A stretch of DNA of 64,000 nt from an uncultured Veillonella sp. (lineage in GTDB: Bacteria; Bacillota; Negativicutes; Veillonellales; Veillonellaceae), in NCBI RefSeq assembly GCF_963524655.1, contig NZ_CAURHA010000002.1, forward strand, positions 19,839 to 83,838. The letters run 5' to 3'. Below are positions 20,546-58,030 of this stretch, piece after piece. The notes under the pieces were generated by a model, which was not told the DNA's origin, did not search any database, and saw only the letters and a program-made list of their open reading frames with translations. The position numbers and the translations under genes were made by a program. How positions within the stretch are numbered: the first letter of the stretch is position 1; each line of letters begins with the position of its first letter.

Positions 20546-21730
20546 TTACTCTCGAATAAATTGACTAAATACATAGTTACCATGCTTAGCCCCTTCAAAA
20601 CTTAAATGATAACTACCATTTTGATACTCTAATAAGCCTTTAGTAACTAAATCTTCTAATATATTGCCAAATAAATTATGAACAGATACGCCAAATCTAT
20701 CCTCAAATTTTTGCTCATCAAGGCCCCACTTAGTGCGAAGCGCTAAGAAGCAAAAGTCCTCTTGCGCGCGCTCTACAGTAATAGTCTCTGTATCGATAGT
20801 AGGCATAGTATATCGATCAACCGCTTGTATATAAGGCATCACATTTCGGTTGTTGCTACGGCGAATACCATCATAGAAGGAATGAGCACCAGCACCAAAT
20901 CCTAAGTAGTCTACATAGTGCCAATATTTTAAATTATGACAGCTATAAGAACTATCTTTAGCAAAATTAGAAATTTCGTATCGTTCAAAACCTTGATTTT
21001 TCAATCCTTCCATCATTGTATCATACATCGCTTCATCAATGCTTTCACTAGGAATAGAAATAAGATTCTTTTGAACTAAATGATATAAATATGTTCCTAC
21101 CTCTACTTGTAAGCCATACGTAGAAATATGATTAATTGGTAAATCTTTAAGGATATGTAAATTATGTTGAATATCTTCTAATGTTTGTCGTGGCAAACCA
21201 TAAATCAAATCTATATTGATATCTGTAAAGCCTGCCTCTTTAGCTTCATAAACAGCTTGTTTAGCCTTTTCCCCATTATGACTGCGATGCAGCATGGTAA
21301 GCGCCTTATCATCAAAGGTTTGAACACCAAAACTAATGCGATTAAAACCTAGTTTAACTAACTGAGTTAGATACTGTAGATCTATTTCACCAGGATTAGA
21401 CTCTATAGTCATATGACAATCGTCAGTAATAGTAAAAGTACTTTTGATTTTATCTACAATCATCTGTAACTGTTGAATTGATAATTCAGTAGGTGTACCA
21501 CCACCAAAATAAATAGTATCAATAGGTTTAGATTTAGACTCTGGGTGTTCCGAAACCCACAAATCCATTTCTTGTACTAATGCATATACATAAGTTTCGT
21601 AATAATCTTGTAAATTTTGATAGGCTGGAAAATCACAATACATACATTTCTGTTTACAAAAAGGGATATGGACATACAAGCCCATATCCCCAAGTGTAGA
21701 CAGATTCAGGATATTAGAATCTGTTTTCAT
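20546..21730 (-). CDS. hemW: Radical SAM heme chaperone HemW (HemN-like)
   Basis: LYVHIPFCKQKCMYCDF, YFGGGTP and YEISNF..HN..YW motifs; follows lepA; start MKTDS after the GAGGA SD. Confidence 0.9.
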   Translation of the reverse strand: MKTDSNILNLSTLGDMGLYVHIPFCKQKCMYCDFPAYQNLQDYYETYVYALVQEMDLWVSEHPESKSKPIDTIYFGGGTPTELSIQQLQMIVDKIKSTFTITDDCHMTIESNPGEIDLQYLTQLVKLGFNRISFGVQTFDDKALTMLHRSHNGEKAKQAVYEAKEAGFTDINIDLIYGLPRQTLEDIQHNLHILKDLPINHISTYGLQVEVGTYLYHLVQKNLISIPSESIDEAMYDTMMEGLKNQGFERYEISNFAKDSSYSCHNLKYWHYVDYLGFGAGAHSFYDGIRRSNNRNVMPYIQAVDRYTMPTIDTETITVERAQEDFCFLALRTKWGLDEQKFEDRFGVSVHNLFGNILEDLVTKGLLEYQNGSYHLSFEGAKHGNYVFSQFIRE

Positions 21731-21734
21731 TATA

Positions 21735-23534
21735 TTAGTCCTCAACCTTGAGAATAGCCATAAATGCTTCTTGTGGAATCTCTACAGAGCCCACAGACTT
21801 CATACGTTTCTTACCAGCTTTTTGTTTTTCTAAGAGTTTACGTTTACGAGAAATATCACCGCCGTAACACTTCGCCAAAACGTCTTTACGCCACGCTTTT
21901 ACAGTCTCACGAGCCACAATTTTTGTACCTACTGCTGCTTGAATAGGAATTTCAAACATTTGACGAGGAATGAGTTCTTTTAATTTTTCTGCTAATGCAC
22001 GACCACGTGTTGCAGCACGATCCTTATGTACGATAATGGATAACGCATCTACTGGATCACCATTTAACAGAATATCCATCTTAACCATTGGAGACTGTTT
22101 ATAGCCAATCAATTCATAGTCAAGAGAAGCATAACCCTTGGTAGCAGATTTCAATTTATCAAAGTAGTCGTAAATAATTTCACTCAATGGCAAGTGATAT
22201 ACAACAGATACACGTGTTTCATCCAAATATTCCATAGATTGATATTCACCACGTTTATCTTGAGATAACTCCATAATAGTACCAACAAAGTCTTTAGGTA
22301 CAATAGTAGTAGCTTTTACATAAGGTTCTTCAATGTAGTCGATTTCTGTAGGAGGTGGCAATTTAGCAGGATTATCTACTTCTAGCATTTCTCCATTTGT
22401 TTTATATACCTTGTAGTTTACAGATGGAGCGGTCGTAATGAGCGTTAAATTATATTCTCGCTCTAACCGTTCTTGAATAACGTCCATATGTAAAAGTCCA
22501 AGGAAGCCACAACGGAAACCAAAACCCAATGCCAAGGATGTTTCGGCTTCATATTCTAAGGCAGCATCATTAAGCTGTAATTTTTCTAATGCATCACGAA
22601 GATTTTCGTAATCTTTAGACTCTGTCGGATAGAGACCACAGTATACCATAGATACAGCTTTGCGATAACCTGGCAATGGTTCTGTTGCAGGATTGTTTGC
22701 CAATGTTACCGTATCACCTACATGACAGTCTGCTACATTCTTAATACTTGCCGCAATACAACCTACAGAACCACATGGTAATTCCTGAACAGGCACAAGA
22801 TTTGGTGTAAAGATACCGAGCTCAGTTACATCAAAATCCTTATTATCATGCATCATGCGAATGGTATCTTTTGCCTTGATAGTGCCTTCTTTTACGCGTA
22901 CATACGCAATAGCACCTTTATAGGAATCAAAGCGGCTATCAAAAATCAAAGCTCTCGTAGGTTGATCGGATTTATCTGGTGGCGCAGGCACCTTATTTAC
23001 AATAGCTTCTAAAATATCAGGGATACCGATACCAGATTTAGCAGAACATAATACAGCATCAGATGCGTCTAAACCAATGATATCTTCAATTTCATGTTTT
23101 ACTCGATCAGGATCTGCAGAAGGCAAGTCAATTTTGTTGATAACAGGAATAATTTCAAGATCATGTTCTAAAGCGAGATACACATTTGCCAACGTTTGAG
23201 CCTCTACACCTTGTGCAGCATCTACTACTAGTAATGCACCTTCACAAGCTGCAAGAGAACGAGAAACTTCATAGCTGAAATCCACATGACCCGGAGTATC
23301 GATGAGATTCAAAGTATACTCTTCTCCATCTTGTGCTTTATACAAAATTCGAACAGATTGCGCTTTAATAGTAATACCACGTTCTCGTTCTAAATCCATG
23401 GAGTCCAAAACTTGAGCCTCCATTTCACGCTTTTGTAATGTGCCAGTATATTCAATTAATCTATCGGCTATGGTAGATTTACCATGGTCAATATGAGCTA
23501 TAATACAGAAGTTTCGAATCTTTTTCGTTGACAT
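21735..23534 (-). CDS. lepA: Translation elongation factor 4
   Basis: [30 protein letters not shown] and [18 protein letters not shown] motifs. Confidence 0.99.
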
Positions 23535-23572: not shown

Positions 23573-24634
23573 CTAACATACGCGATCGATAACAGCACCT
23601 CCTAATAGTTGAGTGCCATTATAAAAGGCTACGGACTGACCTGGGGTTATAGCCCGTTGTGGTTCTTCGAAGATAACTTCCATCGTATCATCATCTAAGA
23701 TACGTGCAGTACAAGGTGAAGGATTTGCTGCATAGCGAATTTTACCTTCTGCTTTTAATTCTTTATGAATTGTATCATCCAGGAAATTATAGAACTTACA
23801 AATCATACGATTTGTAAAGAGTCGTTCATTAGGACCTACGATAACCTCGTTGCGATCACCGTTAAAGCCAATAACGTATAATGGGTGCTTATATGCAATA
23901 CCAAGACCTTTACGTTGACCAATAGTGTAATTAAATAAGCCATTATGCTTACCTAATACCTCACCATCTTCAGTAACAATATTACCAGTTTTTGGTTTTG
24001 CCTTCATTTCTTCTACTACCAGCTTTTGATAGTTACCATGAGGCAAAAAACAAATATCTACGCTATCTGGTTTCTTCGCTACTGGTAAATCATATTCAGC
24101 AGCTAGTTTACGTGTTTCAGTCTTACATTGTCCACCTAGTGGGAACATGAGGTGACTCAAAATGCGTTGGTTCATATTGTACATGACATAGCTTTGGTCT
24201 TTGGTAGGATCAACGCCTTTATGTAATTCATATAAACCTGTTTCTTCATTGAAATTAACTTGTGCATAATGACCTGTAACCATATGAGTGGCTCCAAGTT
24301 CAAGAGCACGGTTGAGCATCAAATCAAATTTGATATTTTTATTACAGAATACACAAGGATTTGGTGTACGACCATAGGCATATTCTTTTACAAAGTAATC
24401 TACTACATTCTCGTAGAATACATCGCGAGCATCAATAACATGATGCTCAATACCAAGAAAATCACACATCTTCTTAGCATCTGTTACAGCGAGAGGTACT
24501 GAATCATAAGGTGTACCACTCACCCACAACCATAGGGTAATACCAAATACTTTATAGCCTTGTTTTAGTAGCATTGCAGCAGTTAAAGAACTATCTACGC
24601 CGCCACTCATAGCTACAGCGATAACTTTTTCCAT
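23573..24634 (-). CDS. mnmA: tRNA 2-thiouridine(34) synthase
   Basis: AMSGGVDSS, TPNPCVFCN, TGHYA, KDQSY, ICF, YTIGQRKG and AITPGQS motifs; start MEKVIA after the AAGGAG SD. Confidence 0.96.
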   Translation of the reverse strand: MEKVIAVAMSGGVDSSLTAAMLLKQGYKVFGITLWLWVSGTPYDSVPLAVTDAKKMCDFLGIEHHVIDARDVFYENVVDYFVKEYAYGRTPNPCVFCNKNIKFDLMLNRALELGATHMVTGHYAQVNFNEETGLYELHKGVDPTKDQSYVMYNMNQRILSHLMFPLGGQCKTETRKLAAEYDLPVAKKPDSVDICFLPHGNYQKLVVEEMKAKPKTGNIVTEDGEVLGKHNGLFNYTIGQRKGLGIAYKHPLYVIGFNGDRNEVIVGPNERLFTNRMICKFYNFLDDTIHKELKAEGKIRYAANPSPCTARILDDDTMEVIFEEPQRAITPGQSVAFYNGTQLLGGAVIDRVC

Positions 24635-24643
24635 ACTTTCTCC

Positions 24644-24749
24644 TTTTAATGATCTCTTGATCATAAAACTAATCAGGGTGAAAGCCTGACGTGTAAAACA
24701 CTAGTTCGGTGTAAAAGTCCGAGTAGTATTGCTATGAAATTATAGCAAC
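24644..24749 (-). promoter_or_regulatory. Structured 5' leader of mnmA (4-5 hairpins, two resembling tRNA anticodon stem-loops)
   Basis: Hairpins TTGCTAT/ATAGCAA, TCGGA-CTTTTAC-ACCGA, TCAGG-CTTTCAC-CCTGA and TTTTATGATC-AAGA-GATCATTAAAA between the promoter and the SD. Confidence 0.55.
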
Positions 24750-24753
24750 TTAT

Positions 24754-24782
24754 ATTATAGCCTAGAATTAGGTACATTGAAA
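24754..24782 (-). promoter_or_regulatory. Putative mnmA promoter
   Basis: Perfect TATAAT (24754-24759) with a weak -35 TTTCAA at 17 bp, just downstream of a terminator. Confidence 0.55.
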
Positions 24783-24793
24783 AGATTTGAAAT

Positions 24794-24828
24794 AAAAAGA
24801 ATCCCTTTCATCAAAAGAAAGAGATTCT
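24794..24828 (-). terminator. Terminator after the ynbB-like gene
   Basis: AGAATCTCTTTC...GAAAGGGATTCT followed by TTTT. Confidence 0.75.
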
Positions 24829-24833
24829 AATTA

Positions 24834-26072
24834 TTATCTATGTTTTAGTAATTCTTCTGCAGCACCTAAAATACCTAGCATGGAATGTTCAAATACAAGT
24901 CCACCTTGCATGAAAATTGTATACGGAGGACGAACAGGACCATCTGCACTTAATTCAATAGAAGAGCCTTGTACAAAGGTACCACCAGCCATGATGATTT
25001 TATCTTCGTACCCAGGCATATCACCAGGAATAGGATGTACGTGAGCATCTACAGGAGAATATGCTTGCATACCTACACAGAAGTGCTCCATTTCTTCTCC
25101 ATTTTTTAGATTAATAGCTTGAATTAAATCATAGCGATCAGCATTTACCTTAGGGAATACATCATACCCTAACAATTCACCTACTGCAGCTGTATATACA
25201 GCCCCTTTAAGAGCTTGTAATACTACGTGAGGAGCCATAAACAAGCCTTGGAAGAATAAACGGTAACCAGGCGCATATGAGCCCATATGATCACCAAGTC
25301 CTGGAGCAGTGAGTTGGTACGCTGCATCTTCTACTAAGTCTTCACGACCTACGATATAGCCACCTGTTGGTGCTAAGCCGCCCCCTGCATTCTTAATGAG
25401 TGAACCAGCCATAATATCTGCACCAGCTTCTAAAGGTTCTTGCAGTTCTGTAAACTCACCATAACAATTATCTACAAAACAAATCGTATTCGAGTTTTTA
25501 GCTTTTACAGCATCTACAATAATCTTAATATCTGCAATAGATAATGGTTCACGCGTACTATAACCACGAGAGCGTTGAATCACTACTACTCGCGTATTGT
25601 CATTAACAGCATTAGCAATGGCTTCTACATCATAGGTATTGTCCTTTAACGGTACCTCAGTATAGGTAAACCCCTTTTCTATTAGAGAGCCACGCACCTC
25701 ACGAGATGCACCGATAACAGACTGCATCGTGTCGTATGGAGCCCCTACTGCATAGATAAACTCAGTCCCTTTTGAACCATTCCCCATTAAAGAAATCAAC
25801 GTTGTTGCTAGTGCATGAGTACCAGATACAAAATGGGGACGAACGATGGCTTTTTCACCTTTAAATACATAAGCGAATACTTCGTCTAACTTCTCACGGC
25901 CCACATCGTTATAACCATAACCAGTAGTACCTGTAAAATGATAGTCAGATACTTGGCACTCTTTAAAGGCTTCTAATACCTTTTTTGTATTGGCTAATGC
26001 AATAGGTTCAAACTTTTTAAATTCAGGTTCAGCCATCTCAAGGGCTTTACTACGTATTTCTTCTAATGTCAT
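24834..26072 (-). CDS. Methionine gamma-lyase family / aluminium-resistance (YnbB-like) PLP enzyme
   Basis: TGYGYNDVGR, SGTHA, IQRSRGY, FVDNCYGEF, GSLIKN.GGG and AGTF.QG.SIELSADGP motifs. Confidence 0.9.
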   Translation of the reverse strand: MTLEEIRSKALEMAEPEFKKFEPIALANTKKVLEAFKECQVSDYHFTGTTGYGYNDVGREKLDEVFAYVFKGEKAIVRPHFVSGTHALATTLISLMGNGSKGTEFIYAVGAPYDTMQSVIGASREVRGSLIEKGFTYTEVPLKDNTYDVEAIANAVNDNTRVVVIQRSRGYSTREPLSIADIKIIVDAVKAKNSNTICFVDNCYGEFTELQEPLEAGADIMAGSLIKNAGGGLAPTGGYIVGREDLVEDAAYQLTAPGLGDHMGSYAPGYRLFFQGLFMAPHVVLQALKGAVYTAAVGELLGYDVFPKVNADRYDLIQAINLKNGEEMEHFCVGMQAYSPVDAHVHPIPGDMPGYEDKIIMAGGTFVQGSSIELSADGPVRPPYTIFMQGGLVFEHSMLGILGAAEELLKHR

Positions 26073-40640: not shown

Positions 40641-41462
40641 TTACGCGAATAGCAATATATAGACTAATGTGATAGGTGCAGCAAATAGTAAGCTATCAAA
40701 GCGATCTAATACACCACCATGACCTGGTAATAAAGTACCAGAATCTTTTACATTACATAATCGCTTAATCTTTGATTCAAATAAATCACCTAATGGTGCT
40801 AATATACCACTGATCATCCCTACATGGATACCCATCCACCAAGGAATACCAACAATATACGAAAATACTGCGCCTGTAATGATACAGCCTACAAAACCAC
40901 CAATAAAACCTTCTAATGTTTTATTAGGACTAATTGATGGTACAATCTTACGTTTACCAAATGCACGACCTGCAAAGTAAGCAAAGGTATCACTAGCCCA
41001 CGTAGTAAACAATAATAACCAAAGTGTAATTGTTCCCCAGTTATGTAGTTCAAAAGGCATTGTTAAAGACATATATATAGAGTCATGACGAATCATGAGC
41101 AAAGAAATCATGCCAATACCAACGTATAGCAAACCAAATACGCTAAAGGAGACGCTAGCCATAGAGTATTTATTTTCGCCAAACGTACATAACATATAAT
41201 TAGCAAATAAACTTAATACTAAAATAGCTATAGCTAGAATATATTGATGACATGCGAAAGCAATCATCAATAATAACATACTGATGTACCCCCATATAAT
41301 GGACATACGTACATGTTTAGCCTTACCGAGCAAAACAAATTCACGCCACCCTAATAGGGCTAACAGCGTAATAAGAACATCATACACTGGTCCGCCTAAC
41401 GTAATGGCCCCTAAGGCAATAATAAAACCTATAACAGCGGTTATAACACGTGTTTTTAACAT
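40641..41462 (-). CDS. cdsA: Phosphatidate cytidylyltransferase
   Basis: SDTFAYF.G, ISPNKTLEG and GDLFES.IKR...VKDSG.LLPGHGGVLDRFDS motifs. Confidence 0.96.
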   Translation of the reverse strand: MLKTRVITAVIGFIIALGAITLGGPVYDVLITLLALLGWREFVLLGKAKHVRMSIIWGYISMLLLMIAFACHQYILAIAILVLSLFANYMLCTFGENKYSMASVSFSVFGLLYVGIGMISLLMIRHDSIYMSLTMPFELHNWGTITLWLLLFTTWASDTFAYFAGRAFGKRKIVPSISPNKTLEGFIGGFVGCIITGAVFSYIVGIPWWMGIHVGMISGILAPLGDLFESKIKRLCNVKDSGTLLPGHGGVLDRFDSLLFAAPITLVYILLFA

Positions 41463-57889: not shown

Positions 57890-58021
57890 AAAAAAAGCCT
57901 CTCATGTACTCATGAGAGACCCTCCCATCTAACGACATTTGTCATAGGAATTAGCACCTTTTCCCCTTGGAATGGTTGCTGTAGCTTCACAGGGCCTATC
58001 CCTCCGCTACTCTTGATGAGT
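57890..58021 (-). ncRNA. SAM-I (S-box) riboswitch with terminator expression platform, upstream of metK
   Basis: CTCATCAAGAG-TAGCGGAGGGATAGGCCCTGTGAAGCTACAGCAACC...AAGGTGCTAATTCC...AGATGGGAG core, followed by the terminator GTCTCTCATG..CATGAGAGGC-T7. Confidence 0.95.
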
Positions 58022-58030
58022 TACAGAAAT

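Follow-up and report, generated by a model that had tools for sequence, protein, structure and literature searches.

The mRNA leader of mnmA, the gene for the tRNA 2-thiouridine(34) synthase, contains in Veillonella short hairpins that resemble the anticodon arms of MnmA's own tRNA substrates, and comparison of leader sequences indicates that these hairpins belong to a real, mnmA-specific conserved RNA element in two families of the Veillonellales. By analogy with the thrS operator of Escherichia coli, we consider the chances slightly better than even that the mimics form an operator of the same kind, to which MnmA would bind and thereby limit its own translation. The stretch of DNA analysed here (64,000 nt, the window) comes from a Veillonella of the parvula group (closest MnmA matches 97–99% identity, titled Veillonella). 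A first-pass annotation of the window had described two anticodon-arm-like hairpins in the mnmA leader, and both the sequence and its folding agree with that description. The features of the locus are the following, given in the direction of mnmA transcription.

24834-26072: upstream gene, methionine gamma-lyase family (Pfam PF06838)
24798-24828, minus strand: intrinsic-terminator-like hairpin after the upstream gene (12 pairs and a T-run)
24754-24783, minus strand: candidate promoter 1, TTTTCA, 18 nt, TATAAT (10 of 12 consensus matches)
24739-24747, minus strand: candidate promoter 2, extended -10 box TG-C-TATAAT (TGCTATAAT) inside the 5' hairpin (from sequence)
24728-24749, minus strand: 5' hairpin of 8 bp (folding, and variants in 62 leaders)
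24697-24730, minus strand: module 1 (copy 1), outer stem, internal loop and anticodon-arm mimic (folding)
24691-24701, minus strand: linker with a variable T-run (alignment of relatives)
24673-24689, minus strand: module 2 (copy 2), anticodon-arm mimic with the outer stem largely lost (folding)
24650-24663, minus strand: SD-proximal hairpin with a 6-bp core (folding and covariation)
24636-24645, minus strand: Shine-Dalgarno (SD) sequence AAGGAG (24640-24645), then AAAG
23573-24634, minus strand: mnmA, tRNA 2-thiouridine(34) synthase with a CxxC + C (C-type) motif (NF001138, 2DER, motif)
21735-23534, minus strand: lepA, downstream of mnmA
20546-21745, minus strand: hemW, downstream of lepA

The gene matches the NCBIfam model NF001138 (407.5 bits, cut-off 284) and E. 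coli MnmA 2DER (E = 4e-76), and it was the sole match in a search of the genome for mnmA. MnmA proteins fall into motif classes that include a C-type and a D-type, and the C-type enzyme of Thermus thermophilus depends on a [4Fe-4S] cluster that is sensitive to oxygen (PMC7025502); for E. coli MnmA there is disagreement over what part a cluster plays (PMC11784392). MnmA reads U34 and U35 of its tRNAs (PMC4227215). One genus (g9 of family f3; L116, L453; G093) carries a D-type (DxxC) MnmA, unlike the C-type of its order, which groups with other Bacillota enzymes, and a horizontal replacement of mnmA in this genus is possible on these sequences.

Both candidate promoters lie upstream of both mimic hairpins, and an extended -10 box of the promoter 2 type also precedes the motif in family f2. 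The terminator that the first-pass annotation had placed upstream of the mnmA promoter was found at 24798-24828; it is missing in some relatives (L087, L090, L114), where the upstream stop is close to the -10 box or the motif. Variation of the 5' hairpin among relatives (62 leaders) includes U·G wobbles, one G-C to A-U change and one variant that breaks a terminal pair, and the retained pairing suggests that the 5' hairpin is transcribed from promoter 1. One contig (depth 6.7, from a run guessed to be RNA) ends at 24734, near the predicted start of promoter 2, which as a single contig amounts to no evidence.

The leader folds into four hairpins, and both mimics are present in the minimum free energy (MFE) and centroid structures of the 114-nt sequence. 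Copy 1 (UCGGA-CUUUUAC-ACCGA, 24706-24722) has a Lys-type UUU loop closed by A·A, with an outer stem formed by 24724-24730 with 24697-24703, and copy 2 (UCAGG-CUUUCAC-CCUGA) has a 5-bp stem that extends to 6 bp via a G·U pair. What had been read as a third UUUUAC copy between them proved to be the 3' arm of the copy 1 outer stem together with the 5' flank of copy 2, with a T-run that varies in relatives. Adding 25 nt of coding sequence lowered the predicted probability of both hairpins together to 0.03, since the start of the reading frame offers copy 1 an alternative pairing partner. The folding z-score of the leader was -2.71 on the minus strand versus -2.69 on the plus strand, so folding energy gives no choice of strand.

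The SD-proximal stem covaries among species (GAUC/GAUC, GGUC/GACC, GGACC/GGUCC) and its loop is unconserved. Its outer extension (24644-24668) overlaps AAGGAG by 2 nt in the MFE structure and is missing from the centroid. In several Veillonellaceae (L099-L106) the SD-proximal hairpin starts with GGUCAAGCG, nine bases shared with the start of the tRNA-Glu D-arm; elsewhere the loop is unconserved. Copy 2 is 39 nt from the ATG in the window, and between the mimics and the mnmA ribosome site there is no terminator; a terminator prediction lists hairpin 2 only by way of an interrupted T tail that is not retained in relatives. An alternative start ten codons upstream and in frame (ATG, 24664) was rejected, having no SD and no conservation.

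The loop CUUUCAC is identical to the anticodon loop (nt 32–38) of tRNA-Glu(UUC) in three genomes related to the window, in agreement with the first-pass annotation, which had equated it with the tRNA-Glu loop of E. coli and Bacillus subtilis; tRNA-Glu was not among the 26 tRNAs found in the window assembly. The commonest 15-nt core of the element is identical at 14 of 15 positions to nt 28–42 of this genome's tRNA-Gln(UUG) and differs at position 36 alone, and the core of window copy 1 is identical to the same stretch at 13 of 15. Copy 2 of the window has the Glu loop on a stem unlike that of any substrate. Every sole or SD-proximal copy presents the Glu anticodon UUC on a tRNA-Gln-like stem. 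Position 36 varies between C and U, and MnmA is not reported to read it; the copies with U36 are conserved without exception in the parvula group. No copy has G36, and U36 is confined to extra upstream copies, which makes the loop narrower than the known specificity of MnmA. A second helix adjoins the mimic in most Veillonellaceae copies and could stand in for a D-stem. On the plus strand, the 11 bases at 24669-24679 are the same as those on the 3' side of the tRNA-Lys(UUU) anticodon arm in this genome, which makes the leader complementary to that arm there; this match is unconserved outside the parvula group and is probably due to chance.

The hairpins are rare within the genome itself. Over both strands of the whole genome, three hairpins have a CUUUCAC loop closed by five or more Watson-Crick pairs (about 0.0001 per 115 nt); the family pattern is found at two places, both of them in the mnmA leader, and other CUUUCAC or CUUUUAC hairpins lie mostly in coding DNA. 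An A/U-only hairpin with a CUUUCAC loop is located near 41433 of G000:C1, in the spacer right after a gene that we take from its sequence to be trmL-like, and is probably a chance occurrence. A comparison with Rfam, proposed in the first-pass annotation as a check, found no family at gathering threshold over the mnmA leader (Rfam 15), the best match being preQ1-II with 16.3 bits against the 47 needed (E = 4.9). Elsewhere in the window a SAM-I riboswitch was identified at 57922-58022 on the minus strand (RF00162, 81.1 bits).

A set of 80 mnmA loci was taken from the genome collection, of which 78 were usable (L068 and L093 were dropped, their 5' regions being missing or broken). The core C(A/G)G(A/G)-CUUU(C/U)A(C/A)-NC(C/U)G, a 4-bp stem around a 7-nt loop, was present in the mnmA leader of 78 out of 78 Veillonellaceae loci, with two copies in 62 loci, one copy in 15 and three copies in a single locus (V. 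absiana). Among 62 close relatives, none of the 17 sites of either hairpin varies (0/34 for both), while 155 out of 199 third codon positions of mnmA and 39 out of 74 sites of the upstream terminator and spacer vary in the same genomes. In one Veillonella locus (L108) copy 2 remains but copy 1 is missing, apparently deleted between short repeats.

The same core was found within 320 nt upstream of mnmA in 39 of the 41 genomes of family f2 with a located mnmA, and the four f2 genomes without the motif are the same four without a located mnmA. We take f2 to be probably the Dialisteraceae, which belong to the same order as the window, and the names of families f2 to f4 are likewise presumed. The f2 leaders have one core each, their MnmA is 44–46% identical to that of the window, and the f2 pattern search returned seven matches elsewhere versus two for a reversed control. 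A covariance model, which by construction matches the rows used for its training, had matches in 65/65 genomes of f1, 38/45 of f2, 0/7 of f3 and 0/33 of f4, with one locus each, and all 106 matches listed lie just upstream of mnmA on the same strand (compared by eye). The gene neighbourhood is mnmA-lepA-hemW in f1 and unrelated and varying in f2 (enoyl-CoA hydratase, CrcB, GmrSD, transglycosylase, TerC), and f4 keeps mnmA-lepA but lacks the motif; the motif thus stays with mnmA across changed neighbours, which indicates that the element belongs to mnmA. On the MnmA tree the motif requires three changes and is compatible with one gain in the order followed by losses. In metagenomes, mnmA lies within 330 nt downstream of 53 of at least 118 loci with the exact pattern, and the remaining loci have no common neighbour among the matches listed and look like scattered chance matches. 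The first-pass annotation had proposed alignment of relatives as a check, and loop conservation with covarying stems holds across two families, always directly upstream of mnmA.

In the other Negativicutes and Bacillota sampled, the element was not recovered. A generic search for anticodon-like hairpins gave 1 match in 71 mnmA upstream regions of other Negativicutes (0.7 expected) and 1 in 89 of other Bacillota (0.8 expected; one further locus had no start), with 0/18 and 0/27, respectively, in the regions crudely filtered as intergenic. In many of the sampled genomes iscS/iscU-type genes precede mnmA, and the regions counted are those upstream of mnmA itself. A model search of 151 Bacillota genomes gave ten weak matches outside this genome (E 0.002–0.04), none of them at mnmA, and the matches were rejected on inspection as terminator, coding sequence or unrelated spacers. 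Likewise rejected were 20 pattern matches in other Negativicutes families, which have no mnmA downstream and 19 of which lie in open frames. The mnmA leaders of two f4 loci (L134, L135) have in common a hairpin of another kind, GC-rich (GGCGGCGGCUCCUG ... GCCG) and located downstream of the promoter, which may be a leader element in its own right. Three leaders of family f13 (L168, L174, L182) have a conserved, terminator-like GCAGUC-N4-GACUGUC hairpin with a U-run directly after the -10 box.

Base pairing was analysed in an alignment (A1) of 33 of the 59 distinct instances, whose rows are related and were selected in part by the stem pattern; a regex match in upstream coding DNA (L235:883-923) was left out. 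Numbered as in tRNA, pair 29-41 is G-C in 18 rows, A-U in 9 and G·U in 6, and is never unpaired and never A·C (n = 33). Pair 31-39 is A-U in 24 rows, G-C in 4 and mismatched in 5 (A·A in three, A·C in two), pairs 28-42 and 30-40 are invariant, and pair 27-43 is formed in 15 and unpaired in 18 of the 33. The covariation score of the alignment was reached by 0 of 500 shuffles; for the Veillonellaceae rows alone, covariation was not above shuffles (53/500). Within the loop C32, U33, U34, U35 and A37 are invariant, the first three of which formed part of the row selection; U35 and A37, which did not, are invariant in 33/33. Position 36 is C in 28 rows and U in 5, and position 38 is C in 31 and A in 2. 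An outer stem of 5–9 pairs is present in 12 of 19 Veillonellaceae rows, with 1–3 uninterrupted pairs in the other 7, and in window copy 1 its arms have changed yet remain paired; RNAalifold did not recover it. The occurrence of G-C, G·U and A-U, and never A·C, at pair 29-41 favours an RNA on the mRNA strand. The first-pass annotation had named expression of the structure from the plus strand as an outcome that would refute it, and this wobble pattern speaks for the other strand.

The mimic lies between a promoter-like box and the mnmA ribosome site, and in the favoured operator reading spare MnmA would bind the leader of its own mRNA and block ribosome loading. Plentiful unthiolated tRNA-Glu, tRNA-Gln and tRNA-Lys would draw the enzyme away and translation would run, and once these tRNAs are modified, MnmA left free would occupy the leader. 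In the Veillonellaceae, where the last hairpin is 22–65 nt from the ATG, the block would be steric. Across all leaders this distance is 22–233 nt, with one f2 leader at 233 nt. Some extended f2 leaders of about 233 nt (L141, G088:C49, and similar metagenome loci) have an apparent decayed second module near the SD. In f2, MnmA binding could lock the SD into a D-stem-like helix, since the invariant UCCUU that adjoins the hairpin on its 5' side can pair with AAGGA of the SD; this helix is present in the MFE structure of 7 out of 17 f2 leaders.

Predicted energies speak against a switch in which the hairpins simply close the SD: with the hairpins constrained to form, opening the SD became cheaper by 0.5 kcal/mol or more in 11 of 32 leaders, and no leader showed an increase above 0.4. 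The duplexes of UCCUU with the SD and of the loop with the SD are no stronger than those with the ribosome sites of other genes, and loop-SD or anti-SD pairing was therefore rejected as a proven switch, its energies being unexceptional. In the f2 leaders (alignment A3: L137-L149, L235, L249, L283, L295) the base of a hairpin, UG(C/A)GAU ... AUGAUGGUU, is conserved 3' of the mimic around a variable insert. The conserved base includes UGGU, complementary to the ACCA end of tRNA-Glu and tRNA-Lys, which may be chance. A kink-turn reading of this base was rejected as its register does not fit (A3).

An unlikely alternative is that MnmA acts on the leader catalytically, or that the sign of its control is reversed. 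Pairing with A is stronger for a thiolated U, and 2-thiolation of U34 would strengthen the CUUUC/GAAAG pairing and shut translation, in which case the leader would report the activity of the enzyme (sulfur, Fe-S) rather than its amount; in the form with reversed sign, MnmA on the leader would keep the hairpin formed and the SD accessible. In favour of this alternative, GAAAG is present at the ribosome site in 29 of 32 leaders (13/15 among the Veillonellaceae) and is complementary to CUUUC of the loop, GGAGAAAG is infrequent ahead of other genes (3/1189 in this genome), and the start regions of lepA and of the upstream gene at the same loci are unconserved; a conserved, otherwise rare GGAGAAAG that is complementary to the loop makes a refolding or modification-dependent switch conceivable. 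In the free MFE structure of several leaders the loop strand pairs with the SD region, which a forced hairpin frees, and the CxxC + C motif is that of the oxygen-sensitive Fe-S MnmA (PMC7025502). However, 4–88% of other ribosome sites pair with the loop equally well, and L111, L114 and L443 have no GAAAG yet keep the loop. That MnmA 2-thiolates the U34 equivalent of its own leader mimic, and that this modification sets mnmA translation, we accordingly hold to be improbable to the same degree. Somewhat less probable again is a different anticodon binder, such as a non-discriminating GluRS or MnmE/MnmG, that would couple mnmA to the status of tRNA-Glu and tRNA-Gln. The UUC anticodon on a tRNA-Gln-like stem in each sole or SD-proximal copy would suit a non-discriminating GluRS, which charges both tRNAs (PMC9976931), and since nearly all copies have C36 and none G36, a GluRS-like reader is conceivable. 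Against another binder, the element is found at mnmA alone, with no copy at other loci of the genomes searched, the U36 copies are perfectly kept in the parvula group, and in the known cases described in PMC9976931 the binder is the product of the downstream gene.

The two remaining readings dispense with an anticodon-binding enzyme. It is very doubtful that the hairpins have a structural role at the mRNA 5' end, in stability or processing, and no part in feedback, possibly as descendants of a tRNA-Gln gene fragment. The leader is indeed a run of hairpins, the f2 core lies at the predicted 5' end, and the 14/15 identity to tRNA-Gln(UUG) would fit such an origin, but a structural element has no need for a 7-nt loop that stays invariant between families whose MnmA proteins are 45% identical, or for tandem duplication to two or three copies, and its stem is weak. 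The reading to which we give the least credence is a DNA operator for a transcription factor, in the form of an imperfect inverted repeat with a 7-bp spacer at the transcription start. In most f2 leaders the nearly invariant core starts 12–15 nt downstream of the -10 box. At pair 31-39, two lineages show A·C, a wobble on the other strand alone, and no row has G·U. Such an operator would be expected to have conserved half-sites, a spacer free to vary and no strand bias between G·T and A·C; instead, the spacer is the most conserved part and the arms covary, pair 29-41 has six G·U and no A·C, the distance to the -10 box is 9–67 nt in the Veillonellaceae, and the single site per genome leaves no regulon.

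A search of the full-text literature, in which most subscription journals lay outside the search, returned nothing on anticodon-based autoregulation in an mnmA leader and nothing on bacterial tRNA-modifying enzymes that autoregulate via their own mRNA. A study of V. parvula intergenic regions (Brewer 2021) makes no mention of mnmA, trmU, thiouridylase or anticodon in its main text and one supplementary file, and its other supplements may name the motif differently; the main text of Weinberg 2017 has no such element, which the supplement may list under another name. No autoregulation or feedback was found in the portions consulted of a 2026 review of bacterial RNA modifications (PMC13602947). 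In the parts of the sources cited here that bear on it, self-regulation by anticodon mimicry is described for aminoacyl-tRNA synthetases alone (PMC3858243, PMC9976931). We found no prior description of the mnmA leader element, which by analogy probably works like the thrS operator in the service of a tRNA-modifying enzyme.

If MnmA reads the leader, a modification enzyme would adjust its own abundance to how much tRNA is still unmodified, and the amount of such tRNA would here depend on the supply of sulfur and probably on an Fe-S cluster that is sensitive to oxygen. If MnmA thiolates the leader, translation of mnmA would be switched by a modification that the enzyme makes in its own mRNA, in response to its sulfur and Fe-S competence, and a bacterial mRNA would carry a site-specific thio-modification. 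The mimic is a candidate natural minimal ligand of MnmA and a candidate thio-modified mRNA. Because the element is short and precisely placed and occurs in commensals common in the mouth and gut, binding and reporter tests are direct, and its natural variants (one to three copies, C36 or U36, C38 or A38) indicate the bases to mutate.

The closest known system is thrS of E. coli, in which ThrRS binds two leader hairpins and prevents binding of the 30S subunit (PMC3858243), with recognition that follows tRNA identity rules (PMC9976931). In both leaders 5' hairpins copy the anticodon arm of the enzyme's own tRNA, often in tandem (PMC3858243, PMC9976931), near the ribosome site and without a terminator. 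The mnmA element likewise occupies the 5' leader of the gene for an anticodon-arm-binding enzyme, between predicted promoter-like boxes and the SD, and the loop of the enzyme's own tRNA is conserved as RNA with covariation at two pairs. Unlike thrS, mnmA encodes a tRNA-modifying thiouridylase rather than an aminoacyl-tRNA synthetase, its mimics number one to three and are not tied to a dimer, the mimic joins a Gln-like stem to a Glu loop, and the target base of the mimic could itself be modified; there is no sequence homology between the two, and the mnmA element is known from sequence alone. The mRNAs of several yeast synthetases (AspRS, HisRS and others) also contain an anticodon-like structure bound by the encoded enzyme (PMC9976931, PMC6542539), as is proposed here for MnmA, although these are eukaryotic synthetases and the account in PMC9976931, as far as consulted, names no modification enzyme.

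With T-box leaders the element would share the coupling of a tRNA-metabolism gene to tRNA status in the Bacillota. No T-box model matched the window at gathering score, none was among the 11 matches (E up to 10) in 24550-24900, and a terminator/antiterminator ahead of mnmA is absent. A T-box binds tRNA by codon-anticodon pairing, usually with a terminator switch, whereas the mnmA element displays the anticodon itself, in modules of about 35 nt.
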